From the NCBI GenBank assembly GCA_032718475.1, contig JAUCBJ010005043.1:1-64000 (forward strand): 64,000 nucleotides of DNA, in the 5' to 3' direction. This stretch comes from Nemertoderma westbladi. Taxonomy: Eukaryota > Animalia > Xenacoelomorpha. Made by a program: the position numbers and the translations under genes. Under the pieces are notes generated by a model. It saw nothing but the letters and a program-made list of their open reading frames with translations. It was not told where the DNA came from and did not search any database. The first letter of the stretch is position 1, and every line of letters begins with the position of its first letter. Shown here piece by piece: positions 28,326-50,743 of this stretch.

Positions 28326-28541
28326 AATTACATCAGTCTATACTATAATTGGAAATAGCACCTTTTGTTGCAGCGAGCGTCACATACTGTAGCGGCGTCA
28401 TATGTTAATTAAATATACAGTACTCTAATATTGTAGTTGCATCAATTATTGTTATATACATAGTAATGGTGATGGATTATTGATATTGATATTGATATTA
28501 TATTATATTGTGTTGTTGATATATCTTAATAATAATAATAA

Positions 28542-29225
28542 ATGGCTGACTTTAATTCAGGTCCATATAATTTAAACTTTCAAATGGGAACGAGTATGAT
28601 AATTTCTGGGCCATCTGGTTCTGGAAAGTCAACCTTTGTAAGCAATTTAATTAAACACAAGAATGGTTGTTTCAACGAAGCCCCCTTGCGAGTATTGTAT
28701 TGTTACGGGAGCAATCCCCCGACTATTCCCGGTATTACTCACCTTTACAAAGGTTTGCCCGAAAATATAGATAGTTTAGTGAATAGTCTAGATTTATTAA
28801 TTATAGATGATTTGTTAACAGAAACTGAGTCCAGTACAGCATTAACTGTATTGTTTACTAAGGTAGCTCATCATTCCAATATATTTATTTGTTTTATAAC
28901 GCAAAACATGTTTTACGGTGGGAAGCATAACCGCACAAGATCAATTAATAGCCATACTTTAGTATTAATGAAAAATCCGAGAGACAGTTTATCGGTTTTA
29001 AATTTCGCGAAGCAGATGTTACCAGGGCAGACCAAATTTTTAGTTGATTCCTATCAAGATGCGACAATTCAACCATTTTCACATTTCTTAATTGATTTAC
29101 GACAGGAAACACCCGAACATTTACGATTTAGATCTGATATATTTCGTAATCATAATTGTTACATTAAAAATTACACTGACTATAAACGTAGCGCAAATAA
29201 TAATAATAATAATAATGATAAATAA
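28542..29225 (+). CDS. A32/FtsK-like genome-packaging ATPase
   Basis: Walker A GPSGSGKS, Walker B LLIIDD, ITQN, RSINSH and KNPRD motifs of Polinton ATPases. Confidence 0.95.
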   Translation: MADFNSGPYNLNFQMGTSMIISGPSGSGKSTFVSNLIKHKNGCFNEAPLRVLYCYGSNPPTIPGITHLYKGLPENIDSLVNSLDLLIIDDLLTETESSTALTVLFTKVAHHSNIFICFITQNMFYGGKHNRTRSINSHTLVLMKNPRDSLSVLNFAKQMLPGQTKFLVDSYQDATIQPFSHFLIDLRQETPEHLRFRSDIFRNHNCYIKNYTDYKRSANNNNNNNDK

Positions 29226-29262
29226 TTAATATTTTGTAACAATTTTCAATAATGTTGCAACA

Positions 29263-29646
29263 ATGAATAGACTTGTGCAGAAATATCGTAACGAACTGGA
29301 ATTTCTACGCAGCGCTACCCCTCAACAAAGAACTTATTTTATTAACCATACCGTGAGTAACGAATTAATACGGCTCATTGTAAATACTGCATTAAATGTT
29401 CTAAAAGGTAATGTACAATTAACCCCTCATTCATTTAGAAATATTCGCCGCTATAAGAAGGTATTGAAATCACTCAACCGTAAAACAAAAAATATATCAA
29501 GTTACAGAAAAAAGTTAAGCAATCAATCTGGAGGTATACTACCGTTTCTAATACCCTTACTCGGCATTGGTGCGAAACTCCCCGCGAGTGCCGGTGCCAC
29601 CGCCGCTGGAGCAGCTATTGCGAAAAAAATTAACCGTGGACGGTAA
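29263..29646 (+). CDS. Basic virion core protein with an adenovirus pX-like C-terminus
   Basis: K/R-rich; NVLKGNVQL; QSGG|ILPFLIPLLG resembles adenovirus pX MRGG|ILPLLIPLIA, an adenain site followed by a hydrophobic helix. Confidence 0.75.
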   Translation: MNRLVQKYRNELEFLRSATPQQRTYFINHTVSNELIRLIVNTALNVLKGNVQLTPHSFRNIRRYKKVLKSLNRKTKNISSYRKKLSNQSGGILPFLIPLLGIGAKLPASAGATAAGAAIAKKINRGR

Positions 29647-29648
29647 TA

Positions 29649-30892
29649 ATGGTTAAAACAGGAGTAACATTTAGAAAATTATATTTAGTATCGAGTAAAC
29701 CGTTAGCTACTGATTTAAAACCTCAAGATATACCTAGAGTAAATACTACAAAAAGAAAACCCTTTAAAACATCAACTTCAACTTCAACTTCGGTTGTCGA
29801 AAAGATGCCTCGCAAGATGAAACCGATTTTAAGCCGAAGCTTAGACAAAAAACTGTTAAGAATTTATTTAGATCCTTCATCCCCTGCGGGATTTGCAAGT
29901 GTTGCAAAATTAGCAAAAGCTGCAAACATCAACCAGCACAAGCCCAGAAATGGCTGAGCGGGCAAAAGACATACACCCTTCACGCTCCACGTAGACATCA
30001 TTATCCAACATCTAAAATATTTACGGGAGGCATAAAAGATATATATATGATAGATTTGGTGGATATGCAGCAATATAAATCGCAAAATAATAATTATAAC
30101 TATATATTAACATGTATTGATGCCTTTAGCAGGCTTGCTTTTGGCTATGGTATGAAAACAAAAAAGGGTATTGAAATTATTAGTATATTGCAAAAAATAT
30201 TCCAGAAAGGAAAACCAAACAGAATCGCCACGGATCAAGGTTCTGAGTTTCTAAATAAATCTGTAAGGAAATATTTAGATACATTAGGTATACAGTATTA
30301 CGTAATGTACTCTGTGAATAAGGCGGCTATTGTCGAGAGATTCAATAGAACATTAAAAACAAAGATGTTCAAAATTTTTACACAACGGGGAAATAATGTT
30401 TGGATAAAAATTTTACCTAAGCTTATCTCAGCTTATAATAGGTCATAACATAGGACAATACAAATGACTCCCATTGAAGTTAATAAATTTAATGAAACTG
30501 AATTAATGAATAGATTATATGGGAAATGTAGACAGATTAATCACAAGAAAATAAAATTTAAAGTTGGAGATACAGTACGATTATCTATCGCTCGTACTGC
30601 TTTTGCTAAAGGCTATCGAGAACAATGGACACGTGAATTATTTATTATTCATCGTGTCAGGTTGGATAGAGTACCTGCTGTAATGTTCGATATTAAGGAC
30701 AGCGCTGGAGCTATAATAAATGGCTCATTTTATTCTCACGAACTCCAAAAGGTCCACCCGAATATTAATATTTATCTAGCAATTGACAAAAATATTGGCA
30801 AACTTAAAGAACGTGTACGCAATGGGAAGAAAGAATATTTAGTCCGATTCATTGGATCCAAGAAACAGTCGTGGGTACAGCATATTCAATAA
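29649..30892 (+). pseudogene. Maverick retroviral-like (c-int) integrase with chromodomain-like tail; one frameshift and one stop
   Basis: IYLDPSSPAGF, frameshift near 29940 into KWLSGQKTYTLH, D-D-E motifs (IDLVDM, TDQGSEF, VERFNRTLK), in-frame TAA at 30446-30448, then FKVGDTVR...WTRELF...EYLVRFIG. Confidence 0.93.
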
Positions 30893-31142
30893 GCTCAGGT
30901 TTATACTGTATATTAATTCATTTTGGTCGCATATGACCGTAATTAATCAATATTAACTCGAATGATATTACTATATCTATAGTTCATCTGCTTTAAATAA
31001 AGCCAGTAAAATATTGATCCCTCGCATATACTGTAGAAGATGCGACAATGAACGTGGTCACAGATGTCTATAATTTAACATTATACTGTACTGTATGTAC
31101 AATGGAGTCAAGTAGAGAGAGCGAGCTTAAATAATAATAATA

Positions 31143-32016
31143 ATGGCCACAGATACATATATCACTCTACTTTCAGATAGCTCATTAAACACTTACCCCA
31201 ATAATAATCCTAGTGAGTTTACTGTTGATTTAGCCGAAGAATTATATATTGGTCCAAACGCTAAAATTGGGCTTGCCGAGCTTCAATACCAAGCAACATA
31301 CAGTAATATTACGCTGCAAACTCAAATCTCGCTGTCAATCGGGGTAGATGCAAAAGATGCCAAATTATATAGTTTATTTCCTGGTATGCATAACTCTATT
31401 CAAGTCATTATTGATGATATAAATAAACTGTTTAATTCTGAAGCGAAATATAGAGATTTCGAATTCATTTTTAATACAAATAATTCTAGAATTAAATTTA
31501 AATTTCCTAAAAAGTTGAAAAAAATACAATTAAGTCTACGTGGTGATTTAATACAAATTCTAGGCTTAAAACCGTTATTGGATCGGAATCATCCAGATAT
31601 TCCGAATTGGGATATATACAGTACCACTACAGTAGATGAATTAAGCAATATAGAACAGCCGATATTAATTTTAAATTATAGTGGGGCCAAAAATTTCGGA
31701 AATTGGCATTTTAGATTTTCCAGCTCCCACGAATATAACACGTAATAAAGATACAATTTTCATATACACAGATATTATTAAGAGCTCATTTGTTGGTGAC
31801 GCTTTAGCTCCGCTCTTAAGAACCTGCCCTTTAACGCAATTAAATCGAAAATATATTAATCACGAATACGAGAGCATTTGCTATTACCCGTTGTTGAATA
31901 AAAAACTAAAAACAATCTTAATTACTTTACGTGATGGGTAAGGCGAATTAATTAACTTCAGCGGAGGTCGTACTGTTATAACACTTAAGTTAATACGGGG
32001 TGGCAGTGATGGATGA
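31143..32016 (+). pseudogene. Minor capsid protein (penton) 1, disrupted
   Basis: YITLLSDSSLNTYPNNNPSEF, IGLAEL; frameshift near 31690 into IFIYTDIIKSSFVGDALAPLLR; in-frame TAA at 31939-31941, then GELINFSGGRTVITL. Confidence 0.88.
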
Positions 32017-32855
32017 ATTCTACGTAAGACTACCGAGTAACTCCTGTCCAATTGATTTTCCCCGCAATAGCGCTAGTAATTATCAGATAAATTTCCACGG
32101 CGCCTTACCTATAAATCCAAACGAAAACTGGGTGGTAGGTATAAAAAGTATATTTTACTTAGCAACGTTACCGTCCATGTATAACAATGTAGAGAATGTT
32201 ATTTTATTAAAAAAAGGGAAAAAAAATTTTGAGGATACACTTCCATCTGGTTTGTTCTACAGTATCAATGACATTATAGATTATTTTAACATGGGGACGT
32301 TGAAAGATAAATTACAAATAGTTGAAAATACTCAGCAAAATAGGTTGCAATTTATTTTAGGGAAAACTGTGCGAGAGTTATTTATAGGTCAACAATTAGC
32401 CTATTATTTTGGAATTACTGAAAATAATCTCGGCGCGAATTTAAATCCAAATTTTAAAATTATTTTGAAGACGAAAAATAATATAAAGGGTTATTTAATA
32501 AAGGTTATCGGAAATGAAGAAAAAGCTTACCAGATGGTATTTTTATGCCCTCAATCACCCAATTCTATTCCAGAACCTAAGTCGAACATGTACGTGACTA
32601 CTAATATAATTGAAAATCAATATATTAACGATTTTGGTTTAGCTTTACTTCGTCGTGTCGCGATACCTGATGATGTGAAATATGGTAGCGTAATAAATAA
32701 AGAATTTGTCAAGGATACAATTCATTATATCCCTGTAAAAAAAATCATATAAGATAACATACATTCATATTGAAATAACAGACAAAGAAGGAAAAGATTT
32801 GAATTTTGAATATGGGACAACATCTATTACATTACACTTTAAACGAATAAATTAA
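32009..32855 (+). pseudogene. Minor capsid protein (penton) 2, frameshifted near the C-terminus
   Basis: FYVRLPSNS...FPRNSASNY, WVVGI, YVTTNIIENQYIND...LLR; shift in the A-run at ~32740 into IHIEITDKEGKDLNFEYGTTSITLHFK. Confidence 0.88.
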
Positions 32856-32856
32856 A

Positions 32857-33417
32857 ATGGATTCTGATTTATTTCAAAGATACAGTAAACCTCAATATGG
32901 TGGTTCAGACTCTAATCTTGCTGTTTTTAAAGGTGGTAGAAGTACCAGAGGTTCGACGCAAGTTCCTGTTTTTCAAGGTGGTTCATATATTGACCCTTAC
33001 GGTCAACAAATTGGTGCATTTGGTCCAAACTTAAAACAACGTCGTTTTCAGCGTTATCGTAGAGGTATGCAGGCAAATCAAGATGGAGAAGGTATATTTA
33101 CAGATGCTTTATCAACATTGAAAAAATTTGGTAAGCCATTAGCTAAAAAAGTTTTACAAAAAGCTTTACCATTTACCACAAAATTTATGAGACAACATGT
33201 AATACCAAAAGGTAAGCGGGTCTTACATCAGCAGGCTAATACGGTTATTAATAAAGCATTAAATAAAATGAAACCGTCAACAAGGTCAGTTGTAGAAAAA
33301 GTTTATAGAGATTTAAAGCGACCTGCTAGACCAATGTCTATGAACATACATCATCGACGTAGTAAAAAGAGAAATATAAAAGGCAAACTGAAACACTGCG
33401 AAAAAAGTATTTTTTAA
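32857..33417 (+). CDS. Arg/Lys-rich virion core protein with protease-site-like motifs
   Basis: QYGG, FKGG, FQGG, QIGAFG and QDGEGIF motifs; very basic; lies between penton and MCP as in Polintons. Confidence 0.75.
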   Translation: MDSDLFQRYSKPQYGGSDSNLAVFKGGRSTRGSTQVPVFQGGSYIDPYGQQIGAFGPNLKQRRFQRYRRGMQANQDGEGIFTDALSTLKKFGKPLAKKVLQKALPFTTKFMRQHVIPKGKRVLHQQANTVINKALNKMKPSTRSVVEKVYRDLKRPARPMSMNIHHRRSKKRNIKGKLKHCEKSIF

Positions 33418-33419
33418 TA

Positions 33420-34679
33420 ATGTCAATTATTAAGGAATTAGATTTATTTTCTACACAGCCAATACAGACTGAATTTAAAGCAAAGCATTATGAAACAATT
33501 TACCCCGTATCTAATCTCAGAAGTGAATCTAGGGAGGTTACGTTCCTTGTACCGAGATCCAATGAATTCTATACGAAACTGCAAGACGCGTTATTAATTA
33601 CAAAATGTACTGTACGCTGGGATAGACGACTTGAAAACTCCCATATTTATATGTTGAATTACCCCGCTGAAACTATGTGGAGTGATATTAAAATAGACCT
33701 TAATGAGAAGCAGGTTGAAAATAGCAATAACCATTATTTCTACAAGTCGTACTTATCCAATTTATTATTTACAACTTACGAGGATAAAAATGGGCTACTG
33801 GGTGCGGGTGGCTTTCATCAACCTTTATCTGAACACGGAAATGAAATTAATGCCGGCGCGCATCCTATTGACGAGGCCTTTAGTAAACAAATGCAATTTG
33901 TAAGTGGATTGACGATTGATTTTGATACTGAAAGCAAAATAATACAACCCGGGTATGATTTAAGAATGCATTTTAGAAAAGTATCAAATTCGTTTATTTT
34001 TAAAATCACTCCAAACGCAAACGCGGTGACAAATCTTCGGCTAGAATTAGATGAAATAAAGATCCTAATCCCTAGAATGGAGGTTAATCCGGTAATAGAA
34101 AGCAGTCACCTAAAAGGTTTAGAGAGTTACGATATTGAATATCAATTCCAAAAAAAGGAGGTGACAACATTTACTATTCCCGCTCAAACCACAAATGACA
34201 CCCAAACAAACATATTTGATGGTAAAAAACCCAAATTAGTTATTATCGGCTTCATAACAAATAATGCTTATTCGGGAGAATTAATTAGCAATCCCTTGAA
34301 ATTCGAACATTTTAACCTTAGACGCGCGGAACTGATTGTAGACGGTCTTCCAGTAGGGGGTGTAATATACGAGCCTAATTTTACAGATGGAACATACATT
34401 TTTGAGTATACTCAATTAATGAAAAACATTAATACATATATTAACGGTTATGGGGGTAATAATATAGACCATGAAACCTACTTAGGTAATTGTCCCCTCC
34501 TATCCTGGGACCTAACCGCCGACGGCTATGTTAGAGATCCGCAACCATCAATATATACTAACGGCCAATTAAAATTAAGATTTCCTGAACCGTTGGTTGA
34601 AACCATAAATGTAATCGTTTTTAATATTTATGATCAATCATTAAGTTTAAATAGCAGGAAAGAAATACATATCGATTAA
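33420..34679 (+). CDS. Double jelly-roll major capsid protein
   Basis: ELDLFSTQPIQT, YETIYPV, YFYKSYL, KPKLVIIGF, GELISNPLKFEHFNL, WDLTAD, GQLKLRF; intact 419 aa. Confidence 0.93.
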   Translation: MSIIKELDLFSTQPIQTEFKAKHYETIYPVSNLRSESREVTFLVPRSNEFYTKLQDALLITKCTVRWDRRLENSHIYMLNYPAETMWSDIKIDLNEKQVENSNNHYFYKSYLSNLLFTTYEDKNGLLGAGGFHQPLSEHGNEINAGAHPIDEAFSKQMQFVSGLTIDFDTESKIIQPGYDLRMHFRKVSNSFIFKITPNANAVTNLRLELDEIKILIPRMEVNPVIESSHLKGLESYDIEYQFQKKEVTTFTIPAQTTNDTQTNIFDGKKPKLVIIGFITNNAYSGELISNPLKFEHFNLRRAELIVDGLPVGGVIYEPNFTDGTYIFEYTQLMKNINTYINGYGGNNIDHETYLGNCPLLSWDLTADGYVRDPQPSIYTNGQLKLRFPEPLVETINVIVFNIYDQSLSLNSRKEIHID

Positions 34680-34681
34680 GT

Positions 34682-35134
34682 ATGTTATCTACAGAGGACC
34701 TTGATATGTTTCCAGTGGGTGGTCACTATTTGGGAGCGTTTCCAGCTAACAAATTACCTAAATTAGATAATAATAAGCGGAAAGATTATGGGTTGATAGT
34801 AAATACCGATAAAGAGCATCTTCCTGGGATTCATTGGATCGCAATATATATACGAGATAATGAGGCCGAAGTATTTGACTCGTTTGGACCAAAATATCCA
34901 AACAGATGCATCGAAAAATGGCTTGAGAAAAATTCCGCAAGGTGGCGTACTACTCGCAAACAATTTCAAGACCCTAGGCGGACCACATGCGGTCTGTACT
35001 GTCTTTATTATTTGGTAAATCGTATTCACACAATCTATCCAATGAGAGCGTTTACAAATAATGTGGAAATAAATGAAATAATATTATATAAATGGCTTGT
35101 TAATTATTATAAAATAAACCAACAAGCGTTGTAA
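34682..35134 (+). CDS. Adenain-like cysteine maturation protease
   Basis: VNTD, GIHW (His), FDSFG (Asp), Q-x6-CGLYC (Gln/Cys). Confidence 0.95.
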   Translation: MLSTEDLDMFPVGGHYLGAFPANKLPKLDNNKRKDYGLIVNTDKEHLPGIHWIAIYIRDNEAEVFDSFGPKYPNRCIEKWLEKNSARWRTTRKQFQDPRRTTCGLYCLYYLVNRIHTIYPMRAFTNNVEINEIILYKWLVNYYKINQQAL

Positions 35135-35165
35135 TTAATCATTTAACTTTTGTTTATCAGATAAA

Positions 35166-35765
35166 ATGGATAATATTATTTTTGTTGATTTTCAATATTA
35201 TAAGATAGACAATAACGAGTATCCGGTAGTATTTAAAGAATTTGCTATATTCGATTCTAATTACACCAAAACTAATATAAAGACGTTTTTAATTAAAGGC
35301 CCACCAAATATTAAGTTATCAGCATTAGATGCAGCCCACGTAAACAATTTACGGGATATGACTTCTCACTTGCCCTGGGACTACGGGGACATTTCGCAAG
35401 ATGACTTTAAAAAATATATGAAGAGACATTTAAAATATAAAAAAAATATTCATGTATTTGGGTTGATGAAGCAGGCAATATTAGTTTCCCAACTCGATGT
35501 TCTCGCGCCAAATTCGGTGGAGAAATTGGGAATATATAAGCAATATCATGATTATTTAACCCCTTGTCGGTTTCACGACCGATTTACTACAGTAGAAAAT
35601 AAATGTGCGTTCCACTTAAACATAAGGGATAACTGTCTGCGATACTGCTCAGCAAAATGCGTTGGGGGGTATGAGATGCTACACTTTTTCATGAGAAAGC
35701 GTTTAACTGCGACTGATGATGATGATAAACAGAAAGAAATAACTGCGGTGGAAGATGTTCTGTAG
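35166..35765 (+). CDS. Maverick accessory protein, DEDD/RNase H-fold-like with Cys/His tail
   Basis: IFVDFQ...FKEFAI...LPWDYGDI...IHVFG, CRFH...CSAKC; a pattern I recognise from Polinton accessory nuclease-like proteins. Confidence 0.6.
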   Translation: MDNIIFVDFQYYKIDNNEYPVVFKEFAIFDSNYTKTNIKTFLIKGPPNIKLSALDAAHVNNLRDMTSHLPWDYGDISQDDFKKYMKRHLKYKKNIHVFGLMKQAILVSQLDVLAPNSVEKLGIYKQYHDYLTPCRFHDRFTTVENKCAFHLNIRDNCLRYCSAKCVGGYEMLHFFMRKRLTATDDDDKQKEITAVEDVL

Positions 35766-36386
35766 GTTTACTCTAAGCATGTAATGTGATGGGATAATAT
35801 AATTGTTTTAATGTCAATAAAAATAATAAAAACATTAAAATCTATTTTTTATATCTCAGTTTGACTAAAGGTGTAGGGCTTAAGTTTACACTCACAAACA
35901 CACCGTACCTACCGGTAGCCGGCTGTTGTATCAGAGTTTAACTACCAGTAGCTGACTTTACACACATACCGACAGATACCAACAACGCTAAACTGTAGAA
36001 CGGCAGAATGGCACCGACAGCAACCACAGCGATTTAGCGTTACCGTACTTACTAATAATAAAATTAAATTAACTCGACATGGGGGTTCGTGAATGCAGCA
36101 TTAGAGGGACCCCCATAACAATAGGCCTACTGGTACCGGCACTGTAGCACTCTTGTAACTGTATCAAGTATACAGGTTTCTTCGATTTAAGGATTAGGCT
36201 ATTACACTTGAATGCTTCCAATTTTCTGTTTACAACTTTAATTGGTCTAATACAGCTATAGTTAACTTTATGCAGGGCCCTTTTTCGCATGTTGACCCAA
36301 TATGGTTTATGGTTAACCTTTAGTACTCGCGGATAGGTAAGGTGCACTTTCATTCGGTTAGGCCTATAGGCCTAATGACTAGCTCT

Positions 36387-36416
36387 CACACACACACACA
36401 CACACACACACACCCC

Positions 36417-36462
<46 letters not shown>
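36387..36462. repeat. (CA)n microsatellite
   Basis: Read directly from the sequence; interrupted by a short C-run. Confidence 0.95.
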
Positions 36463-36464
<2 letters not shown>

Positions 36465-36932
36465 AGGTGTGGTTAGGTAGCGCTATTGGACCTATAAAAT
36501 CCCCTCGCACTCTCTGTTACTAACTTTCAACATTCACTTTATGTTGTATGCTATACCGTTAACTTTTAGTCAGGAACCCCATCATTCAACCAGTCATATA
36601 ATGGCTCCACGCGGATACAATAGGTGTGGCTCGCAGTATACCTAACTAAGCCTATATAAAATCCACCACATTCACTTCATGTTGTAGGCCTATATAAAAC
36701 ATAGTTAGTTTATTTATGTATTCGCTTTTTTTTTAAATTAGATATAAAATAGACTGATAACATTTTAATGAGTTGAAATTTGAAGTTCTCTCCAACTGTT
36801 ACAATCAGACAGGAACACTGGTCACAATTTGACAAATTTAGTAGGTACCGGTAGGGGCTAATTAAGACAGTAACTAACATTCAATAGGTCAGTCAGTCAG
36901 TTCAGTTAGTCAGTATCGATAAATCTCTCTCA

Positions 36933-37325
36933 TTAATAGTACCATTTATAAATTGGTTGCTGTTGCTGTTCCGGTTCCGGTTGCGGTTGTGGTTGTGAAT
37001 GTGTCACAACAACATCATTATCATCATCTTCCCATGGGTTGTTTGGGGGTAACATTGGATTTGTTATACCATCCTCCCAATTTTCTTGAGAAATTATACC
37101 GCCTGTATGAATTTTGCTATCGCTGGGTTGAATTCTCACATTTAATGTGAAATTTTTCATTGTTTTAAAATCTGTTATTTCGTTTCCTCTGTTATTTTTA
37201 ATTTCCATATGGAATTTGCCATCTTCAAGTTTCATACTAATGTCGACTATATTTGCCGCTTGAAGGTATACATCACCAGCTTCAAGATCGAATTTCATAG
37301 AACAACTTGTCACACTTGCTGTCAT
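36933..37325 (-). CDS. Maverick hypothetical protein (130 aa) with QP/Q-rich tail
   Basis: Intact ATG ORF, TATA-like sequence upstream; no family recognised. Confidence 0.6.
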   Translation of the reverse strand: MTASVTSCSMKFDLEAGDVYLQAANIVDISMKLEDGKFHMEIKNNRGNEITDFKTMKNFTLNVRIQPSDSKIHTGGIISQENWEDGITNPMLPPNNPWEDDDNDVVVTHSQPQPQPEPEQQQQPIYKWYY

Positions 37326-38003
37326 TTTACTGTTACAGGTTGGTTATATATAGTACAGTAGTATAGTTTAAGCTAGAGTATACCGGTATTTGTTTTTTCT
37401 TATTTTGGTTAACAAAATTATAGTTCACTGTTAGAAAAATTGAGTTTATATATATTTTTGTAGAGGGTCGCAGATGTGTACATTACAAAATTCACATAGT
37501 TAACAAAATGCACAACATAAACCTTTCCCATGAGGATTAGCGATATATGCTCTGTTCATTGTTCTATTCTGAATGTAGGGAGATGCATAGCGGATGTTTT
37601 AATGATATGTACCGGTATACAGACTAGTAACAGATAGGATGGCATTGTCTTTGACTATGAATACCAGCACATACCCCTAATCTTTTCTCACCGAGCTTAG
37701 CGTTGCCCACCGCACTCACGCACACTCATAAGTAACAGATGCGCTATTGTGGCTCACTCGTGAGCAACAATGCCAAGTTAGCTAGCTAGCTAGCCGCGGC
37801 TGCTGAGTATACTATGTCTACTTGAGTGTTACAAGAAACAATCGCTCTACTGAAGTTAATTTCCCCCCTCAAACTAGTTGTTGATTTTAAAAAAATATTC
37901 ATAAATTTCTTCTCCCTTCAATTTAATATATATATTTTACAGTAAAAATCTCCACCACCAAACAGCAACAACAACAATAAATTTCACTCGTACTAATTAT
38001 ATT

Positions 38004-38546
38004 TTACATCAAAAACCCCACACCAAACAATAATAAATTATTAACCAGCTTGTTGAAAATAGGATAATATATATGAAATTTAAACGGGGAACACATTAAT
38101 GTACATTTACCAGTGTAGAAACAGCAAACAACAACAATATTATTTATTCTGACTTTACAGTTATTGAATATTTCAGGGTCGTATGAAATTTCTAGTTTAA
38201 CATTATCAAATATAACATAAAACCCGATATTATTTATAAGTAACCTATAAATTACAGTATCGATACTAAAAATATAAGTACACAAATTGATTGATTTAGA
38301 AATCAAATTAATGTTTGTTTTTTCTAATATATGTTTTTTCACTTTATTAAAATTATATTTTCTACCGAGAATTGTTATTCGTCCATTTGTAAACATTAAT
38401 ATGGTTGCACCAAATACCTTATATATAAACTGATTAGGTTTGAGTACAATTTTACCATTCAATTGCTTTTTTAATTCTTTTAAATTAAGTCCATAAATGA
38501 TCTGCTTACAACTTATATTTTTATTTACTATTTGATAATTCATCAT
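38004..38546 (-). CDS. Divergent TATA-binding-protein (TBP)-like protein
   Basis: Two-repeat TBP pattern: YQIVNKNISC...LNLKEL...QFIYK...ATILMFTNGRITILG, then KSINLCTYIF...YDPEIFNNCKVRI...VCCFYTGKCTLM (compare TBP YEPELFPGLIYRM...LIFVSGKVVLTG). Start taken at ATG 38546; ~180 aa. Confidence 0.78.
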   Translation of the reverse strand: MMNYQIVNKNISCKQIIYGLNLKELKKQLNGKIVLKPNQFIYKVFGATILMFTNGRITILGRKYNFNKVKKHILEKTNINLISKSINLCTYIFSIDTVIYRLLINNIGFYVIFDNVKLEISYDPEIFNNCKVRINNIVVVCCFYTGKCTLMCSPFKFHIYYPIFNKLVNNLLLFGVGFLM

Positions 38547-41500
38547 CAACACCGTCGTCTTTTGGTTCTTCATAAATTGGTATATTTGATATTTTTATAG
38601 GTTTTTTGAGGTTTGTTTTATAGTGCCCCCAAGGAAGCGATTGATTTTTATTAAGCCAATAAAGTTTATCATCAAAGCTACTGAGTGCAAATTTATTTTG
38701 CTTTAAGGTATAAATACGATGTAATTTAGATTGAAATCTGTGTATGTTTTTTTTTATTTCTTCATTTGAGTTATATGCTTTTAAATATTCTTCATGTGTA
38801 ATATTCGTTTCCACAACAGCTCTTGTAATACCTTTTGCTCTACGAATATTTTTATTATTCCATTCCAAAATTGAATATAATTTTGGTCTTAAAAATACTG
38901 CCTGTTTAATTTCAAGTGAGGCTAGTTCGTCTTTACAGTAATAGAGTCTGGATTTATTTTTATCACTGTAGAGTGGGTGATCCTTAGGGTAATTGGATGT
39001 ATCTAAAATATTATTTTTAATTAATGCTTTTAAAAAATTATTCTGCGATGTATTATAGTAACAACCTATCAATGAGTCAGTGTCTGATGCAGCAATTTCA
39101 ATACGGCAGTTTAATTCTTTCTCAATAGGTAGCAATTTATTGTAATACAGCTCATACATATCCAATTTAGCCAAGTCCAACACAGTGCTACCAATAAATA
39201 TAGGCTTATCGAGAGTTACAGAGTCTTTCACTAATAAATGTTCCGATAATGTATTATTGTATATTATAAATTGTTCATGATTAATACGATTTACCAATTG
39301 ATCGCATTTATCGTTGCTATTTGCGATACGAAAGTTATATCGATCTCTTATCTTTTCTATTGATTTGCCAAACAGCGAATTATTGAGCAATTTCGCGACA
39401 GCTGTTTCAATATAACTTTTTGCCAGTCACCTTTGATTAATATTAAAATCGATGTAATTTTTAAATACAAATTCTTGTTGAAAAGAATATAATTTATGTA
39501 GTTTAGTAACAATTAATCCATGTTTTATATAAAATTTTAACAGTTTCAAATGTAAATGATAAAACTCTTTATCAAATTGTGTCAGCATGAGTTTTGGTAT
39601 AGACATTCTATATTTACGGGTGGTACCTCTTTGTATTGACAAGTTATTAAATTGTTCCCGCATATAAGGTGAAAGCATTGATTCATTTATACTTAAATGC
39701 TCGGGGGCTAACGGTAATTGTAATGTTTGATCGTGAATAGCCTTGGGATAATTTAAATCACATATTAAAAAATATCCAGTAGATCAATGTCCATCAATGT
39801 CTAAATCTACCAAGTACTCGATTAGTTTTTCTGGAATTGCATTCTCTAAATGTTTAATACTTACTTCTTTAAATTGTGAGGTGGGTAGTTTTTTACTTAA
39901 ATTCCCAGAATATAAAGAGTTGAAATCAATATTAAAAATATGGCATTCTTCCTTAGTAGAATCATATGTACTTGTACCTGGTATATTTGATTCTATATAA
40001 TGTTTTTGACAAAATGAAACACCACCCCTAATTGATTTTTCAAAATCTCTATATGTCTGATAATCCTTTATTAATTCTATTTTACATTTATTATATTTTA
40101 GCGCGCAATCATAGGTAAATGACGCGATACTACAGTAAAAAACCGCTTCTAAATCGTAATTTTGTTTACAAACATTCCTAAAATTCTCAAATATATCGGC
40201 AAGCAAACAAACATCGAGTTTTAAATAGGCTAAAAGATAATCTTTGAGATTCACACAGTCGAATTCTACCCATGATATTCCCGCAAACCTATAATCTTCA
40301 ATTGTGCATGTTTTTTGACTTAAGTTACTAAAAAAATTATTTATAGACGGTAAACCAGTATCATTAAATTTATTAATATCTGTCAAGTACTCGTATGGAA
40401 ATACTCCTTTCCATTTAATTGTTGAGTTATTCAAGTTTGGATAAAAATGTTTCATTTCTTGTAGAGTAATAGGTAAAATTGAGCTTATATCATGACTGGC
40501 TACATCCTTTGTTGAACACTCAACTAAATTACTTAAAGAAAAGCTTAAAAATTGATATGTGTCTAAGAAACGTAACTCAATTTTCTTAGAAGTATTTTTA
40601 ATTGGGATAAACGCACTCAGTGAAATATATCGTTCTGTATTTCTCGGTATAACCTTTATATCCCAATCTGTGTATTTCTTATCTCTAAATCCGCTTTGTA
40701 ATATACAATGTATATCGTAATTGTTGGAATTATGGCCACAAAGTACATACAGGTATCGTTTCAATGATAAACTTCGGTTACAACTATTACAGGCTGCCGC
40801 AATATATTTACCTGTAATATGTGAATGGTGTCTGTTTTTCCCTACATTATTATTTAAAGTAACATTACAATAAAAACAAAATTTTGCTTGTTCAAAATTT
40901 ACAAAATCAATATTAGTAAATGACATAGTTTTATGAGTGTATATTTCTGACCAACAACATAATTCAGTTAAATCAGTATATAATGAATCTAAGAAATCTT
41001 GAATACAATTATTATTATTTGACTTTACGAATGTTTTCAAATGACATTTTGGAGCATCAATTAATTCAGTATTGGGAACAATTAAATAACTCACAGCACA
41101 CGGTATATGCTCCTGTATAATTTGATTATTAACTGTCGGTTGTAAGATACATTCTATATCAAAGTAGGTGACAAACAATGGGGATAAGGTTCTATCTAAA
41201 TTTGTAAAACTAATGTGTGTTCTTTTTTTATTAGGTAGTTTCTCGCGCTGACTTCTTCCTTGGTAGCAGGCGAGACAGTGTTGATAAAGAACTTCCGCTC
41301 GAAAAAAATGAGCCAAACACCTTTCGCAATATTTCCTATTCCTGATATGAAGTGTTCTCGTATTCAGCAATCGATTCAAGTTAGTTATGCAAACATAATG
41401 ATTCAGTTTAGGTACATTGTTATTTTTTACTACAAGTAATATATTTAATAACTGTTTATCAGGTGTAATTTTACTAAACGGAGGTTGTCTTAATATAGAT

Positions 41501-42585
41501 ACCGGGGTGCGTTTGTTGTCGTTATTCCAACATAGTAAATTAATTATATATTTTGAATTTTGTTTTTCAAAAAGTTTAATCGCTAACTGCCACTCTGTTG
41601 GATAATCTTTGTTCCCATTGTCAAAAATGAAATGAGTCATATAATTTTTGTACGATGAAGTATGGTTTTTATTATTTTTCACTTTGCTACCAAATTTTGC
41701 GGATATAATAGCCCATTTGAAACAATCATTATCAGCCGTTTGTATATTTATTGTACATTTTTTAGCTGATAAAGCCTTAGGTAATTCCATATATCCATGC
41801 CCCTTATATAGTAACGATCTACACTTAGATTCAGCTAATTTAATTTCAACCCTTAATAAAGATTTAATACGCCACCCAGAACCACGTGTGTTAAAGATGG
41901 CTATTTTTTGTAATATATTTTCCACAACATACTCAAACCATGTGTCAAAACTTTGCGGTGAATCTACAGTATTAATAGCACCACCGGAAGAATTAAAATA
42001 AAAGGTTTCCAATTGCTCACCTTCTGAAAAATGTGACCTGTACATTAATACATTTAGACCTAACCACAGTCTAAGAACATTCATTTCTTTCAATCTGTCT
42101 AATATTAACTGAAGAATATTACCTCGAATTTGTGTTAATGCTGTTTCTACATCGGGATAATCTCTAGAAGTTGGGAGGTCGTGGACATAAATTTCAAGAC
42201 GATTATCGTGAGCTTCTTGTTCCCGCGTAAAAATTATTGCGCATGTACCAAGAGCCACCCTTAAGTTTTTTCTAGATAATATATTTTTATGTTGCGGAGA
42301 TTTACGCTTTCTTGTGTAGTAACATTTCAAGTGACAATCGTGTCGTAAATAATTGTCATATGTATACTCTTTATTACAGGTAGAACAAGTCAATTGATAG
42401 GTGCGGAACTCCATTTCTTTACAACCAGTAGTTGATTCAAGTCGTTTACAAATTTCGCTGCATGAAGTCACGACATGACACTTTAAACAAGAATAACTTT
42501 CAAAATGTGACCGTAGGTGGCGTAAATAATTATGTCTAGTTACATTCATATGACAGAATGAACAACATATTGTTATTTTATCCAT
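38521..42585 (-). pseudogene. Protein-primed family B DNA polymerase (~1354 aa) with N-terminal Zn fingers and an HNH/EndoVII insert; two in-frame TGA stops
   Basis: One reading frame with TGA at 39784-39786 and 39427-39429. GSGW, CFKWA, exonuclease motifs YFDIEC/HNSNNYD/FLDT/YLKLDV, HNH-like CFYC...RHHSHITGKY...CNSCN, polymerase motifs DFNSLY, KLLNNSLFGK, SDTDS, PKLY, RAKG. Confidence 0.96.
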
Positions 42586-42781
42586 GTTGAAGTTTGTTTA
42601 GATAAATAATAATAATAATAATAATAAAATATCTCCAAAGATTAAAATAAAATGAAATGATATGATATTGACTACATCTAAACATTTATATGCTAGCGAG
42701 TGAAATAATTTTAAACCAATCACCAATCACCAATCGCTTATGACTATTGGAAACCGCAAAGAGTTTAACTTGTGATTAGGC

Positions 42782-43846
42782 TTACATGTTAGGATAATAA
42801 TCTGGTTTCCATGGAGAATTAGTAACAGGCTCTACTAGAACTGGGTTACTGACAACTTTCTGTTTCTTTGCAGGTGATGCGTTGGTAAATTTACTCGATG
42901 ATCTTGGCTTCCGAGGTAATATTTCAGGAAAGACCTGTTGCGGTTGAGAGCAACTCTCTTCAACATCCGGATTAGGTGATGGGATCTCTACGAAAGCTTT
43001 AGGTTTATCCAAAAGGACAAAACCGTCAACATGGGCTTCAGTAAGAGAAACGCCATCCATCGATTCTTTGAGAAAACTAATATGGGCTTTATCATTCAAG
43101 TAATGCAACTCGATAGAATTTCCGCCGGCACCTACTTCAGTAGAATTATCGGTGTTGGTGATAATAATTTTTTTATTATTGGTTTTAATCATTTTGAGAC
43201 GGTCTGATAATTGAATGATATTTTTATCAAAAAGATGCTTGTCTGTTTCATCGACTTGGTTGTCCCACTCTCGCAACAAAACGGTTAGTTCCTGTTTTGA
43301 CAAATTGAAACCTGTATAATAGTTAAAACCAACACTATCAGCGTATCTGAGGCTGATTTTCCATAAGCCAACATAGTTGGTTCCTTTAAAAGCTGTTACA
43401 AATCCAATAAACTCTGGATTTGATAATTCAATGTAGAATTGATCGCTAATAATCTCTAGCGGTGGAGAGAGAAATTGCAATAATTTCCCTCTGTATTGAA
43501 TTAGAACTTCAATAAAAGCTTTGTTGAGAACTTTACATTTGCCTTGTTTCTGAACGTAAACATCACCCGATGTGGGGTTGATGGAAATATTCAAATTTCC
43601 CCGCGCAAAACGAAGAGTGGGATATATCCTACCTGGTATAATTGCTGGTCTGTATTGATGTTGGTTGTTGTTGGTTGTTTCTAGAATGTCTAACAAATAG
43701 CGGGTATCTTGATGGGAAAAACAAATTGATTCGTTGTCCTCCTGAGATTCCACAATAAAATACTTGCTGTGAACGACGGTACAAGTATATTTATTGTAAG
43801 TAAATTTCCAGCTATTTGTTGCTCCGGTTTTTTGCGTTAAGGCCAT
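42782..43846 (-). CDS. Maverick protein with a PC4-like ssDNA-binding/coactivator domain
   Basis: FVTAFKGTNYVGLWK...YTGFNLSKQELTVL matches the PC4 pattern V..FKG...IDIR...GISL...QW..L; NLS-like PAKKQK at the C-terminus. Confidence 0.6.
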   Translation of the reverse strand: MALTQKTGATNSWKFTYNKYTCTVVHSKYFIVESQEDNESICFSHQDTRYLLDILETTNNNQHQYRPAIIPGRIYPTLRFARGNLNISINPTSGDVYVQKQGKCKVLNKAFIEVLIQYRGKLLQFLSPPLEIISDQFYIELSNPEFIGFVTAFKGTNYVGLWKISLRYADSVGFNYYTGFNLSKQELTVLLREWDNQVDETDKHLFDKNIIQLSDRLKMIKTNNKKIIITNTDNSTEVGAGGNSIELHYLNDKAHISFLKESMDGVSLTEAHVDGFVLLDKPKAFVEIPSPNPDVEESCSQPQQVFPEILPRKPRSSSKFTNASPAKKQKVVSNPVLVEPVTNSPWKPDYYPNM

Positions 43847-46043
43847 AATCTAATATATATAAATCTCGATTGTCTGTGTGTTTGTCATCGGCTATACAAT
43901 CGAACCCATCTCGATGAAATCTCGCTTGCTATAGCTCGTTAGAAAGGTCTCGCCCTAACTCGTTGCAACGTAATACTCAGAGTCGTCTGAAGTTCGCCCG
44001 TCTGCCGCTAGAGGGCGATTTTCGTGATTTTCGGGCGAAATTTATCGAATTATTTCGGTTCTTCTATCGGTAATTAATGATTTAGAGGGCTAACATTTAT
44101 CCCACCTGGTATAAAATTAACATGGGTAGATTCGCCGTGTCCCATTCTCACAAAGTATTTATTTTATTCGAGTGTTTAATATAAATATGTATGATTATTT
44201 ATTGATTAAAAAACAAATAGTGTATAAATATGTCATATTCGCCAAGCACGATCGAATTGGCCTATTGTTATTGAATAGGGAAGGATTGTTTTCTGTAGCA
44301 ACCTTAAGGTAATTATTGAACTCGCAGCTAGCTGGCTGGGCACAGATAAGGAGCAAGCAGGCTGGAGTGTTGATTGGGGTGGGTTTGGGTTGTAGTAATT
44401 CTGCTTTCTCAATCATTGGCTGCATGGAAGGAGAGGTTTATAACATTTTTGTTTTACTGTTATGAATATTAAAAGTAAAAATAATTATTTCTATAGGCCT
44501 ATACTTACTGTATTATTATGTTATCTAATATTATACATCTAATCTCGATGAAATCTCGCTTACTATAGCTCGTTAGATAGGTCTCGCCCTAACTCGTTGC
44601 AACGTAATACTCAGAGCCGTCTGAAGTTCCCCCGTCTGCCGCTAGAGGGCGAATTATCCGATAGTGAAAACCTGATCTTATTGGGTTGTTTTTAATGCTT
44701 TTGAGCTGAAACTTGGTAGCTATATACTGCAGCATAGGCTGTATATTTCCGGAGTCACTGGGTGGTCTACAGTTCCCCAGTCTACCGTTAGAGTGCTAAA
44801 TGTCTGAGAGATAACATCTTCTCCAACTTTATTATTTACAATCCGTTTTGACTGAAACTTGGTAGGCATCTACTACAGCATAGGCTGAATCTTTACTGAG
44901 TCGCAGAGTCGTCTACAATTTCCCAGTCTACCGCTAGAGGGCGAAATGTCTGCAAGTTAACATCTTCTCCAACTTTGTTATTTATAATCCATTTAGACTG
45001 AACTTGGTAGGCATCTACTACAGCATAGGCTATATCTTTACTGAGTCGCGCAGAGTTGTCTACAGTACCCGCGTCTGCCGCTAGAGGGCGAAATGTATGA
45101 AAGTTAACATCTGCTCCAACTTTGTTATTTACAATCCTTTTAGACTGAAACTTGGTAGGCATCTACTATAGCATAGGCTATATCTTTGCGGAGTAGTAGA
45201 GTCGTCTACAGTTCCACAGTCAGACGCAAGAGGGCGAATTGTCTGATAGTGAAAACCTCATCCCATTTGGTTCTTTTTAATCCTTTTGAGCTGAAACTTG
45301 GCAGGTATCTACTACATCCTAGGCTCTATCTTTACGGAGTTGCAGAGTCCTATACACTTCCCCAGTCTACCGCTAGAGGGTGAAATGTCTGAAAATTAAC
45401 ATCTTCTCCAACTTTGTTATTTACAAACGGTTTAGACTGAAACTTGGTAGGCATCTACTACAGCATAGGCTCTACCTTTACGGAGTCGCAGAGTTGTATA
45501 CAGTTCCCCTATCTGCCGCTAGAGGGCGAATTGTCTGATAGTGAACACCTCATCCCAATTGGTTCTCTTTAATCCCTTTGAGCTGAAACTTGGCAGGAAT
45601 CTACTGCAGCATATTCTGTATCTTTACGGAGTCCCAGAGTCGTCTACAGTTCTTCAGTCTACCGCTAGAAGTCTGAATGTGAACATCTACACCAATTTTG
45701 TTATTTACAATCTGTTTAAGCTGAAACTTGAAAGGCAGGCATTTTACTTCACCATAAACCCCACCTTTACCAAACTGCAGCGCCGTCTGCATTTCACCAG
45801 TCCGCAGGTAGAGGGTGGATCTGAAAGTGATCATTTTCTGGAAATTTTGTTATTTACAATCTGACTAAAGTTGAAACTTGACAGTTATCTCTTATGGGGG
45901 TGGTGTTTTATTTAATGATGGTGTCTGTTCCGTATGCAGTTCTCCAATCTCCCACACATATTCATATATCATCTGCACGTGCACTAGAAAGCTGTGGCCC
46001 GAAGGGCCACAGGCTTTCTAGTCTAATATATATAAATATCGAT

Positions 46044-46075
<32 letters not shown>

Positions 46076-48282
46076 ATCAGCTATACAATCGAACCCATCT
46101 TGATGAAATCTCGCTTGCTATAGCTCGTTAGAAAGGTCTCGCTCTAACTCGTTGCAACGTAATACTCAGAGTCGTCTGAAGTTCACCCGTCTGCCGCTAG
46201 AGGGCGATTTTCGTGATTTTCGGGCGAAATTTATCGAATTATTTCGGTTCTTCTATCGGTAATTAATTATTTAGAGGGCTAACATTTATCCCATCTGGTA
46301 TAAAATTAACATGAGTAGATTCGCCGTGTCCCATTCTCACAAAGTTTTTATTTTATTCGAGTGTTTAATATAAATATGTATGATTATTTATTGATTAAAC
46401 ACCAAATAGTGTATAAATATGTCATATTCGCCAAGCACGATCGAATTGGCCTATTGGTATTGAATAAGGAAGGATTGTTTTCTGTATCATAGCAACGTTA
46501 AGGTAATTATTGAACTCGCAGCTAGCTGGCTGGGCACAGATAAGGAGCAAGCAGGCTGGAGTGTTGATTGGGGTGGGTTTGGGTTGTCTATTGCGAATTG
46601 CTCAGAGTAATTCTGTTTTCTCAATCATTGGCTGCATGGAAGGAGAGGTTTATAACATTTTTGTTTTACTGTTATGAATACCGGTATTAAAAGTAAAATA
46701 ATTATTATTTCTGTAGGCCTATACTTACTGTATTATTATTTTATCTAATATTATACATCTAATCTCGATGAAATCTCGCTTACTATAGCTCGTTAGATAG
46801 GTCTCGCCCTAACTCGTTGCAACGTAATACTCAGAGCCGTCTGAAGTTCCCCCGTCTGCCGCTAGAGGGCGAATTGTCCGATATTGAAAACCTGATCTCA
46901 TTGGGTTGTTTTTAATGCTTTTGAGTTGAAACTCTGTAGCTATATACTGCAGCATAGGCTGTATATTTCCGGAGTCACTGAGTTGTCTACAGTTCCCCAG
47001 TCTACCGTTAGAGGGCTAAATGTCTGAGAGTTAACATCTTCTCCAACTTTGTTATTTATAATCCGTTTAGACTGAACTTGGTAGGCATCTACTACAGCAT
47101 AGGCTATATCTTTACTGAGTCGCGCAGAGTTGTCTACAGTACCCGCGTCTGCCGCTAGAGGGTGAAATGTATGAAAGTAAACATATTTTCCAACTTTGTT
47201 ATTTACAATCCTTTTATACTGGAACTTGGTAGGCATCTACTATAGCATAGGCTATATCTTTGCGGAGTAGTAGAGTCGTCTACAATTCCCCAGTCTACCG
47301 CTAGAGGGCGAAATGTCTGAAAGTTAACATCTTCTCCAACTTTGTTATTTATAATCCATTTAGACTGAACTTGGTAGGCATCTACTACAGCATAGGCCAT
47401 ATCTTTACTGAGTCCCGCAGAGTTGTCTACATTACCCGCGTCTGCCGCTAGAGGGCGAAATGTATGAAAGTTAACATCTCCTCCAACTTTGTTATTTACA
47501 ATCCTTTTAGACTGAATCTTGGTAGGCATCTACTATAGCATAGGCTATATCTTTGCAGAGTAGTAGAGTCGTCTACAGTTCCACAGTCAGCCGCTAGAGG
47601 GCGAATTGTCTGATAGTGAAAACCTCATCCCATTTGGTTCTTTTTAATCATTTTGAGCTGAAAATTGGTAGGCATCTACTACAGCATAGGCTGTACCTTT
47701 ACGGAGTCGCAGAGTTGTATACAGTCCCCCCCCCCATATGCCGCTAGAGGGCGAAATATCTGATAGTGAACACCTCATCCTATTTGGTTCTTTTTAATCC
47801 TATTGAGCTGGAACTTGGCAGGAATCTACTACAGCATATTCTGTATCTTTACGGAGCCCCAGAGTCGTCTACAGTTCTTCAGTCTACCGCTAGAGGGTGA
47901 AATGTCTGAATGTAAACATCTACACCAATTTTGTTATTTACAATCTGTTTAAGCTGAAACTTGAAAGGCAGGCATTTTACTTCACCATAAACCCCATCTT
48001 TACCAAACTGCAGCGCCGTCTGCATTTCACCAGTCCGCAGGTAGAGGGTGGATCTGAAAGTGATCATTTTTCTGGAAATTTTGTTATTTACAATCTGCCT
48101 AAAGTTGAAACTTGACAGTTATCTCTTATGGCGGTGGCGTTTTATTTAATGATGGTGTCTGTTCCGTATGCAGTTCTCAAATCTCAAACACATATTCATA
48201 TATCATCTGCACTGCACGTGCACTAGAAAGCTGTGGCCCGAAGGGCCACAGGCTTTCTAGTCTAATATATATAAATCTCGAT

Positions 48283-48314
<32 letters not shown>

Positions 48315-49204
48315 ATCAGCTATACAATCGAACCCATCTCGATGAAATCTCGCTTGCTATAGCTCGTTAGAAAGGTCTCGCTCTAACTCGTTGCAACGTA
48401 ATACTCAGAGTCGTCTGAAGTTCACCCGTCTGCCGCTAGAGGGCGATTTTCGTGATTTTCGGGCGAAATTTATCGAATTATTTCGGTTCTTCTATCGGTA
48501 ATTAATTATTTAGAGGGCTAACATTTATCCCATCTGGTATAAAATTAACATGAGTAGATTCGCCGTGTCCCATTCTCACAAAGTTTTTATTTTATTCGAG
48601 TGTTTAATATAAATATGTATGATTATTTATTGATTAAAAACCAAATAGTGTATAAATATGTCATATTCGCCAAGCACGATCGAATTGGCCTATTGGTATT
48701 GAATAGGGAAGGATTGTTTTCTGTATCATAGCAACGTTAAGGTAATTATTGAACTCGCAGCTAGCTGGCTGGGCACAGATAAGGAGCAAGCAGGCTGGAG
48801 TGTTGATTGGGGTGGGTTTGGGTTGTCTGTTGCGAATTGCTCAGAGTAATTCTGCTTTCTCAATCATTGGCTGCATGGAAAAGGAGAGGTTTATAACATT
48901 TTTGTTTTACTGTTATGAATATTAAAAGTAAAATAATTATTTCTGTAGGCCTATACTTACTGTATTATTATTTTATCTAATATTATACATCTAATCTCGA
49001 TGAAATCTCGCTTACTATAGCTCGTTAGATAGGTCTTGCCCTAACTTGTTGCAACGTAATACTCAGAGCCGTCTGAAGTTCCACCGTCTGCCGCTAGAGG
49101 GCGAATTGTTCGATACTGAAAACCTGATCTCATTGGGTTGTTTTTAATGCTTTTGAGCTGAAACTTGGTTGCTATATACTGCAGCAGCAGCATAGGCTGT
49201 ATAT

Positions 49205-50440
49205 TTCCGGAGTCACTGAGTTGTCCACAGTTCCCCAGTCTACCGTTAGAGGGCTAAATGTCTGAGAGTTAACATCTTCTCCAACTTTGTTATTTACAAT
49301 CCGTTTAGACTGAAACTTGGTAGGCATCTACTACAGCAATGGCTGTATCTTTACTGAGTCGCAGAGTCGTCTACAATTCCCCAGTCTACCGCTAGAGGGC
49401 GAAATGTCTGAAAGTTAACATCTTCTCCAACTTTGTTATTTACAATCCGTTTAGACTGAAACTTGGTAGGCATCTACTACAGCAAAGGCTGTATCTTTAC
49501 TGAGTCGCAGAGTCGTCTACAATTCCCCAGTCTACCGTTAGAGGGCTAAATGTCTGAGAGATAACATCTTCTCCAACTTTGTTATTTACAATCCGTTTAG
49601 ACTGAAACTTGGTAGGCATCTACTACAGCAAAGGCTGTATCTTTACTGAGTCGCAGAGTCGTCTACAATTCCCCAGTCTACCGCTAGAGGGCGAAATGTC
49701 TGAAAGTTAACATCTTCTCCAACTTTGTTATTTACAATCCGTTTAGACTGAAACTTGGTAGGCATCTACTACAGCAAAGGCTGTATCTTTACTGAGTCGC
49801 AGAGTCGTCTACAATTCCCCAGTCTACCGTTAGAGGGCTAAATGTCTGAGAGTTAACATCTTCTCCAACTTTGTTATTTACAATCCGTTTAGACTGAAAC
49901 TTGGTAGGCATCTACTACAGCAAAGGCTGTATCTTTACTGAGTCGCAGAGTCGTCTACAATTCCCCAGTCTACCGCTAGAGGGCGAAATGTCTGAGAGTT
50001 AACATCTTCTCCAACTTTGTTATTTACAATCCGTTTAGACTGAAACTTGGTAGGCATCTACTACAGCAAAGGCTGTATCTTTACTGAGTCACAGAGTCGT
50101 CTACAATTCCCCAGTCTACCGCTAGAGGGCTAAATGTCTGAGAGTTAACATCTTCTCCAACTTTGTTATTTACAATCCGTTTAGACTGAAACTTGGTAGG
50201 CATCTACTACAGCAAAGGCTGTATCTTTACTGAGTCGCAGAGTCGTCTACAATTCCCCAGTCTACCGCTAGAGGGCGAAATGTCTGAAAGTTAACATCTC
50301 CTCCAACTTTGTTATTTACAATCCTTTTAGACTGAAACTTGGTAGGCATCTACTATAGCATAGGCTATATCTTTGCGGAGTAGTAGAGTCATCTACAGTT
50401 CCACAGTCAGCCGCTAGAGGGCGAATTGTCTGATAGTGAA
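49205..50440 (+). repeat. Homogeneous 146-bp tandem repeat expansion within Helitron unit 3
   Basis: ccg(c/t)tagagggc motif recurring at ~49389, 49535, 49681, 49827, 49973, 50119, 50265 and 50411. Confidence 0.93.
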
Positions 50441-50681
50441 AACCTCATCCCATTTGGTTCTTTTTAATCATTTTGAGCTGAAACTTGGTTGGTATCTACT
50501 ACATCATAGGCTGTATCTTTACGGGGTTGCAGAATCCTATTCACTTCCCCAGTCTACCGCTAGAGGGTGAAATGTCTGAAAGTTAACATCTTCTCCAACT
50601 TGTTATTTACTAACGGTTTAGACTGAAACTTGGTAGGCTTCTACTACAGCATAGGCTGTACCTTTTCGGAGTCACAGAGTT

Positions 50682-50743
50682 CTAAGTGGTTAGCATAACT
50701 GAACGTTTTTCGGGAGACGCGGGTTCGATCCCCGCTGGTGGCA
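50682..50743 (+). other. tRNA-like fragment captured in Helitron unit 3
   Basis: agtggttagca (partial A box) and gcgggttcgatccccgc (T arm/B box); absent from the equivalent repeat in the other units. Confidence 0.7.

Follow-up and report, generated by a model that had tools for sequence, protein, structure and literature searches.

What is a TATA-binding protein (TBP)-like gene doing next to the polymerase gene of a transposable element, and does it work together with the unusual protein encoded on the other side of that polymerase? The question is raised by positions 1 to 64,000 of contig JAUCBJ010005043.1 from Nemertoderma westbladi (assembly GCA_032718475.1; these 64,000 nucleotides (nt) are referred to here as the window), which contain one Maverick/Polinton element with two convergent gene blocks, on the plus strand at 27264-35765 and on the minus strand at 36933-43846. 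In an earlier note on this DNA, the minus-strand block was read as a 354-amino-acid (aa) open reading frame (ORF), the protein-primed family B DNA polymerase (pPolB), a TBP-like ORF and a 130-aa ORF, convergent with the plus-strand structural block, and this order agrees with the ORF coordinates. The note called the 354-aa protein PC4-like and proposed that it forms a transcription module with the TBP-like protein. In our reading, to which we give a probability of about 50%, the two genes would instead be separate accessories of the early block, a solo TBP for transcription of the element and a single-stranded DNA (ssDNA)-binding helper for strand displacement.

The timing of capsid gene expression in animal Mavericks and the identity of their ssDNA-binding protein (SSB) seem to be unsettled. 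Starrett et al. 2021 labelled a TBP-like gene in MELD viruses, as a figure label without analysis in the parts consulted, and the main text of that paper does not mention PC4 (PMC8502044; preprint 10.1101/697771); the main text of Barreat and Katzourakis 2021 contains neither TBP nor PC4 (PMC8097293). In a literature search whose coverage left out most subscription journals, no paper connected Mavericks with PC4 or an SSB, and for TBP the figure label was all that came up. A TBP label is already in print for a related virus; the mechanism considered here is our own inference and its PC4 half is unproven.

The TBP-like gene

The TBP-like ORF matched the Pfam TBP profile (PF00352) in two stretches, with 26.6-27.0 bits (cut-off 22.9) and an E value of 5.6e-6, so that the TBP-likeness claimed earlier was upheld. 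In the ESM-Atlas, 29 of the 30 matches belonged to TBP clusters (best 0.95), with a recognition value of 1703 that falls below the tool's mark and is weak when taken alone. The first ATG of the ORF sits within the 3ʹ end of the polymerase, and the ATG pair at 38546/38543 is the likelier start, as judged from the onset of TBP similarity. Differences between family copies inside the ORF, counted at the 37 sites among those listed, were distributed as 25 third, 9 first and 3 second codon positions (P = 2e-5), a bias that points to purifying selection.

Two very large sequence searches, as well as further homologue searches, returned no relative of the TBP-like ORF, and a single-sequence search of the PDB gave no match. 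Because the large searches had yielded no TBP relative, we collected pPolB-bearing loci for comparison: 113 loci (labelled with L numbers) were gathered with a 40-sequence alignment, and 3,600 ORFs were compared. The sole match below an E value of 0.001 was L034:14633-15139 (E 2.7e-5, 23% identity over 131 aa), which is a clear TBP in another Maverick (Pfam TBP E 2e-15, with 35 PDB TBP sequences matched). Judged by its sequence, the TBP-like gene of the window is a real member of the TBP family, conserved across copies. Neither PF00352 nor PF02229 (the PC4 profile) matched any of seven virus records. In a fold search with the single-sequence model of the protein, archaeal and yeast TBP took ranks 1-2 of 48,161 chains, with low Z-scores of 4.0 and 3.7 and root-mean-square deviations of 2.7 and 2.0 over 48 and 47 aligned residues, respectively. 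Two features of this modelling count against our reading, namely the poor quality of the model itself (predicted local distance difference test, pLDDT, of 34) and the restriction of the fold match to the N-lobe.

To locate the signature residues, the alignments of the window protein with L034 and of L034 with yeast TBP were combined and compared with the signatures given in PMC7221094. As in cellular TBP (PF00352; yeast 1ytb, archaeal 1mp9), two lobes are recognised by Pfam and both L5.1 phenylalanines are retained (F52 and F143); F127 is also present. The acidic TFIIB-contact loop (C.L3.2, C.L3.4) is retained as D123 and E125 in YDPEIF, both acidic positions being shared with the YEPELF of cellular TBP. 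In contrast to cellular TBP, the element protein lacks an N-terminal extension; its first long helix is shorter, its C-lobe contains an insertion, and its N-lobe stirrup is shorter by about 5 residues, as in L034 (the alignments were read by hand and the exact register is unsure). The fourth phenylalanine, which we take to be F99 in yeast numbering, has no clear counterpart. The protein is very basic, with 23 lysines and arginines versus 7 aspartates and glutamates, and its helix is still basic.

In the mechanism that we favour, the TBP saddle would use F52, F127 and F143 to bind an AT-rich minor groove, and the acidic loop D123/E125 would take host TFIIB, and thereby host RNA polymerase II, at the promoters of the element. 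The use of host TFIIB is proposed because no TFIIB was found among the 19 element ORFs scanned with Pfam. With its shortened N-lobe, the protein would be less subject to control by TFIIA, TAF1 and Mot1, and the action of TBP would favour the virion block once replication starts. It is from these residues that we infer a TBP able to dock host TFIIB while slipping the N-lobe regulators.

The TBP-like proteins of large DNA viruses (consulted part of PMC7221094) and of herpesviruses are likewise virus-encoded, keep the DNA-contact residues, have altered N-lobe regulatory features and likely serve late genes. PMC7221094 makes the case that viral TBPs for the most part bypass the TFIIB of the host, which speaks against the docking proposed here; large DNA viruses with TBP mostly encode their own TFIIB, whereas the 28-kb element shows neither TFIIB nor a polymerase subunit. 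In herpesviruses, TBP mimics (BcRF1/ORF24/UL87) and TATT boxes are established, and a six-protein complex acts together with the TATT box, according to the portion of PMC4893493 available to us; the element shows no detectable special box. If our reading is true, the solo TBP, by borrowing TFIIB from the host, would accomplish with a single protein what takes herpesviruses and giant viruses several. The 180-aa TBP-like ORF is intact in this copy and hence readily testable.

Promoter words in the element and in related loci

If the TBP-like protein acts at promoters, its target could be visible ahead of the genes. We searched the upstream regions of 11 plus-strand ORFs of the element and found no common promoter word before the structural genes: exact words, motif search, positional clustering and strand bias were all within controls. 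The best motif scored 72.8 versus a shuffled mean of 70.8, no k-mer went beyond the best shuffled word, and no positional TATA cluster was present, all of which weighs against our reading. Two candidate words were rejected: TTAAATA is present in 6 of the 11 upstream regions, yet 44 of 200 shuffles reach 6, and 74 of the 107 copies of TACWGTA in the window lie outside the element, many of them in one satellite.

A different picture was obtained for L034, the relative that carries the clear TBP. There, the motif CATAAAC scored 91.4, where the highest of 25 shuffles reached 84.3, and its strand count was 12:0, with nine copies located 11-168 nt ahead of the next ORF. As a point against our reading, four of the copies overlap with the preceding gene's stop codon. 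The same search gave no motif in L008, in which a PC4 and no TBP was seen, or in L059. The promoter mechanism is thus supported in the relative L034 and not in this copy; the window copy, AT-rich and decayed, may use plain TATA boxes. L034 is the cleaner test case of the two elements. Within L034:11153-18137, CATAAAC(A/G) precedes most genes, and the locus also encodes KilA-N, a PLA2-like protein and two paralogous 150-aa ORFs. The latter matched neither DUF2738 nor any other family at cut-off, and they could be candidates for the SSB role.

The lack of a common promoter word before the 11 ORFs also speaks for a TBP-like protein that has been repurposed as a DNA-binding protein or decoy, one that would mark the terminal repeats or AT-rich DNA of the element, or sequester host TFIIB, and would start no element transcripts. 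The very basic surface and the strong divergence, with no homologue in the two large searches, would suit such a protein as well. We nevertheless regard this explanation as unlikely, as a decoy or marker fits poorly with the retention of the two central phenylalanines and of the acidic loop that contacts TFIIB, and with the strand-specific TATA-like word before most genes of the TBP-bearing L034.

The 354-aa protein and its relation to TBP

The PC4-like label given earlier to the 354-aa protein found no match in sequence. The Pfam PC4 profile (PF02229) did not match the whole protein or three slices of it up to an E value of 10, and no match was obtained in the PDB, in the Atlas, among homologues or, in any useful form, in PHROG. 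The PC4 proteins encoded by L008 and L060 gave negative results in pairwise and profile comparison alike (repeat profile, -0.9 bits), and hand-cut repeat units scored against PC4 repeats within shuffled controls. These negative comparisons count against our reading. The PC4-like superfamily (PC4/Sub1, Pur-alpha, Whirly, MRP1/2 and phage T5 4bg7) has a beta4-alpha topology, and its members often lack sequence similarity, as described in the part of PMC7549692 that we consulted. The window protein is predicted to share this topology, and differs from the superfamily in having no detectable sequence similarity to it and three or four predicted units rather than one or two.

The topology comes from a single-sequence model of residues 1-288, of low confidence (mean pLDDT 37), in which three successive beta4-alpha units (about 12-57, 79-116 and 136-195; pLDDT 28-63) are followed by a fourth sheet, the pairing of the units by helix swapping lying outside the model. 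The structure check proposed in the earlier note thus returned the repeated units, at a confidence that leaves a PC4 fold unconfirmed. By eye, PC4 resemblance is seen in unit 3 (FKGTNYV...GFNLSKQEL) and in the residues near GVSLTE. The tail of the ORF is rich in proline, serine and lysine and includes the basic stretch PAKKQK. In a structure search with the model, Pur-alpha (3n8b, Z 4.1) came at rank 23 and MoSub1 (4bhm, Z 3.8) at rank 50, low in the list and amid unrelated folds, which is a further point against our reading; MRP1/2 rows were also found, and the PC4-fold rows spanned Z 3.8-4.1 among unrelated folds. A viral structure library gave poor-geometry rows only.

Alternatively, the 354-aa protein could have no relation to PC4 and be some other repeated beta-sheet protein without an ssDNA-binding role, which would be compatible with any reading of the TBP. 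Consistent with this, the sequence tests were all negative and the top structural rows were KhtT, Csm1, Mediator and polo-box domains. We consider it a possible, though not the favoured, explanation, in view of the PC4-like order of the three modelled units, the two PC4-like motifs FKGTNYV and GFNLSKQEL, the tandem PC4 encoded by related Mavericks and the appearance of human PURA I-II at Foldseek rank 7 (E 6e-3, poor geometry). A PC4/PUR-type fold appears somewhat more probable than a different one. We take the protein to be more likely an ssDNA-binding helper of the polymerase, of repeated PC4/PUR type, than a partner of TBP; it would then cover the strand that pPolB displaces. The role in replication is suggested because the PC4 homologue of phage T5 acts as a replication factor (PMC7549692, in the part consulted). 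The alternative offered in the earlier note, an SSB for strand displacement, fits better than its joint module.

In that joint module, the TBP-like and PC4-like proteins would act together at promoters, with PC4 stabilising the opened DNA, and switch on the structural block. Both genes lie on one strand and flank pPolB, and in cells PC4 serves as a cofactor of transcription (PMC7549692, same part); a location beside the polymerase suits replication equally. To follow the two genes in relatives, we took 52 related loci of at least 7.5 kb, some of them duplicates of one element and most of them truncated or distant, in which 410 ORFs of 100-420 aa were reduced to 271 by removal of core genes and near-duplicates, and all 271 were scanned with Pfam. 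TBP was present in one locus (L034), clear tandem PC4 in two (L008 and L060), and both in none (3/52 with one, 0/52 with both). This co-occurrence check is a weak test, since loci are truncated, Pfam is blind to the window's own PC4 candidate and L034 was covered for 19 of its 23 kb. Within that coverage, no PC4 was seen in L034 and no TBP in L008 or L060, so each of the two genes can occur without the other in view. As a PC4 fold is likewise unproven for the 354-aa protein, we find the joint module doubtful. Of the factors once proposed to switch on the structural block, the element TBP remains plausible and partly supported, while its pairing with PC4 is left unsupported by the loci, the fold and the promoter search. 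Complex prediction for the TBP-like protein and residues 1-288 of the 354-aa protein gave a score of 0.00, and, run without an alignment and with the fold of the partner uncertain, it bears neither way.

A bolder reading, which we hold to be improbable, would make this the smallest late-gene switch observed in any virus so far. In it, a rewired TBP that keeps its host-TFIIB dock and sheds N-lobe control would be joined by a three- to four-unit PC4/PUR-fold protein that links the opening of promoters to strand-displacement replication, and both would stand behind an insulator array of CTCF-like type.

The PC4-family proteins of the relatives, L060:6229-6849 (Pfam E 1e-14) and L008:11376-11885 (Pfam E 0.0034), are doubled and carry a C-terminal Cys/His motif, and their alignment matched PDB PC4 with an E value of 6e-5. 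L060 additionally encodes a Bcl-2 family protein (4778-5224). At L049:5447-6085, a poxvirus VLTF3-like late transcription factor is encoded (Pfam E 1e-16), an alternative route to late gene control.

The element, its polymerase and its surroundings

The features of the element are collected in Table 1. Its arms are terminal inverted repeats (TIRs) of 190 nt each with 99% identity (26520-26709 and 54361-54550), its termini read AGTAGT...ACTACT, and a perfect 6-bp target duplication, CACCAA, flanks it at 26514-26519 and 54551-54556. TIRs, AGT/ACT ends and 6-bp duplication are those of a Maverick/Polinton, and so is the gene set of pPolB, integrase, ATPase, protease and capsid genes, of which this copy has pPolB and integrase in broken form. 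The same TIRs, AGTAGT/ACTACT ends, two convergent blocks and genes (the capsid-like ones included) are found in the Mavericks/Polintons, including adintoviruses, described in the accessible parts of PMC8502044 and PMC8097293; the window element differs from those in having its pPolB on a long branch and a 10-kb internal repeat array. The family is present in five sequencing runs from four studies, and none of the runs listed is recorded as RNA.

Table 1. Coordinates in the window of the element and its features.
Feature	Position	Strand	Basis
Whole Maverick/Polinton (28.0 kb, both gene blocks)	26520..54550		TIRs, ends, target duplication
147-aa ORF (no assigned function) and RING-finger ORF	27264..28325	+	Pfam, ORF list
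Packaging ATPase	28542..29225	+	P-loop, weak Pox_A32 matches; E 7e-50 to ATPase-like ORF of L059
127-aa conserved ORF and retroviral-type integrase (in three ORF pieces)	29263..30892	+	rve E 2e-11; related elements
Two minor-capsid-like ORFs, 186-aa basic ORF, major-capsid-like ORF (33420-34679)	31143..34679	+	Resemble matching ORFs of related elements
Adenain-type protease and 199-aa ORF weakly related to ORFs of other Mavericks	34682..35765	+	Peptidase_C5 E 1.4e-5
130-aa ORF, acidic Gln/Pro-rich tail	36933..37325	-	ORF list
TBP-like ORF, 189 aa (about 180 aa from likely start 38546)	38004..38573	-	Pfam TBP, Atlas, L034 homologue, codon bias
pPolB frame, broken	38521..42585	-	Homologues, single frame
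354-aa ORF, possibly PC4/PUR-like	42782..43846	-	Three, perhaps four, predicted beta4-alpha units
146-bp repeat array inside element	43871..53560		Repeat analysis

The names of the capsid genes follow from Maverick gene order and likeness to the ORFs of relatives. The 130-aa ORF had no family match at cut-off in profile scans, and its coverage was thin or absent in some runs, coverage being unable to rank the genes.

The pPolB frame is interrupted by in-frame stops at 39784-39786 and 39427-39429. Family copies, in contigs of sequencing runs, are variable at both stop positions, which indicates that this copy is decayed; judging from the reading frames, it is unable to make full polymerase or integrase. 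The polymerase had 426 homologues at E values of 0.001 or lower, those named being from arthropods and cnidarians, and in a quick tree the window sequence was placed on its long branch nearest to L036/L034, without supported grouping. Scans of viral contigs with one protein at a time, the C-terminal piece of pPolB and the ATPase, gave no match. Contigs of sequencing run X4 skip 41380-42379, 41380-42873 and 42522-42873 (window 41379-42874, plus strand); the skipped stretches have GT..AG ends and good tracts of pyrimidines. They likely reflect splicing of a transcript that runs antisense to pPolB and to the 354-aa ORF, although X4 is not recorded as RNA.

The 146-bp repeats, in four larger units, fill about 10 kb upstream of the minus-strand block. 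They hold 33 words resembling what we assume to be the CTCF consensus (CGCCCTCTAGCGG or one mismatch), all on the same strand, the copies not being independent; the array is possibly an insulator. Several of the plus-strand ORFs within 29646-34682 lie 2 nt apart (TAATAATG, TAAGTATG), an arrangement suggestive of coupled translation or of promoters that overlap. The element is inserted into a degenerate region resembling a long terminal repeat (LTR) retrotransposon (26277-26519 and 54557-56944), which has reverse transcriptase and RNase H remnants. In the host DNA, an unbroken 293-aa ORF for a Pex2/Pex12-type RING protein is located at 13359-14240.

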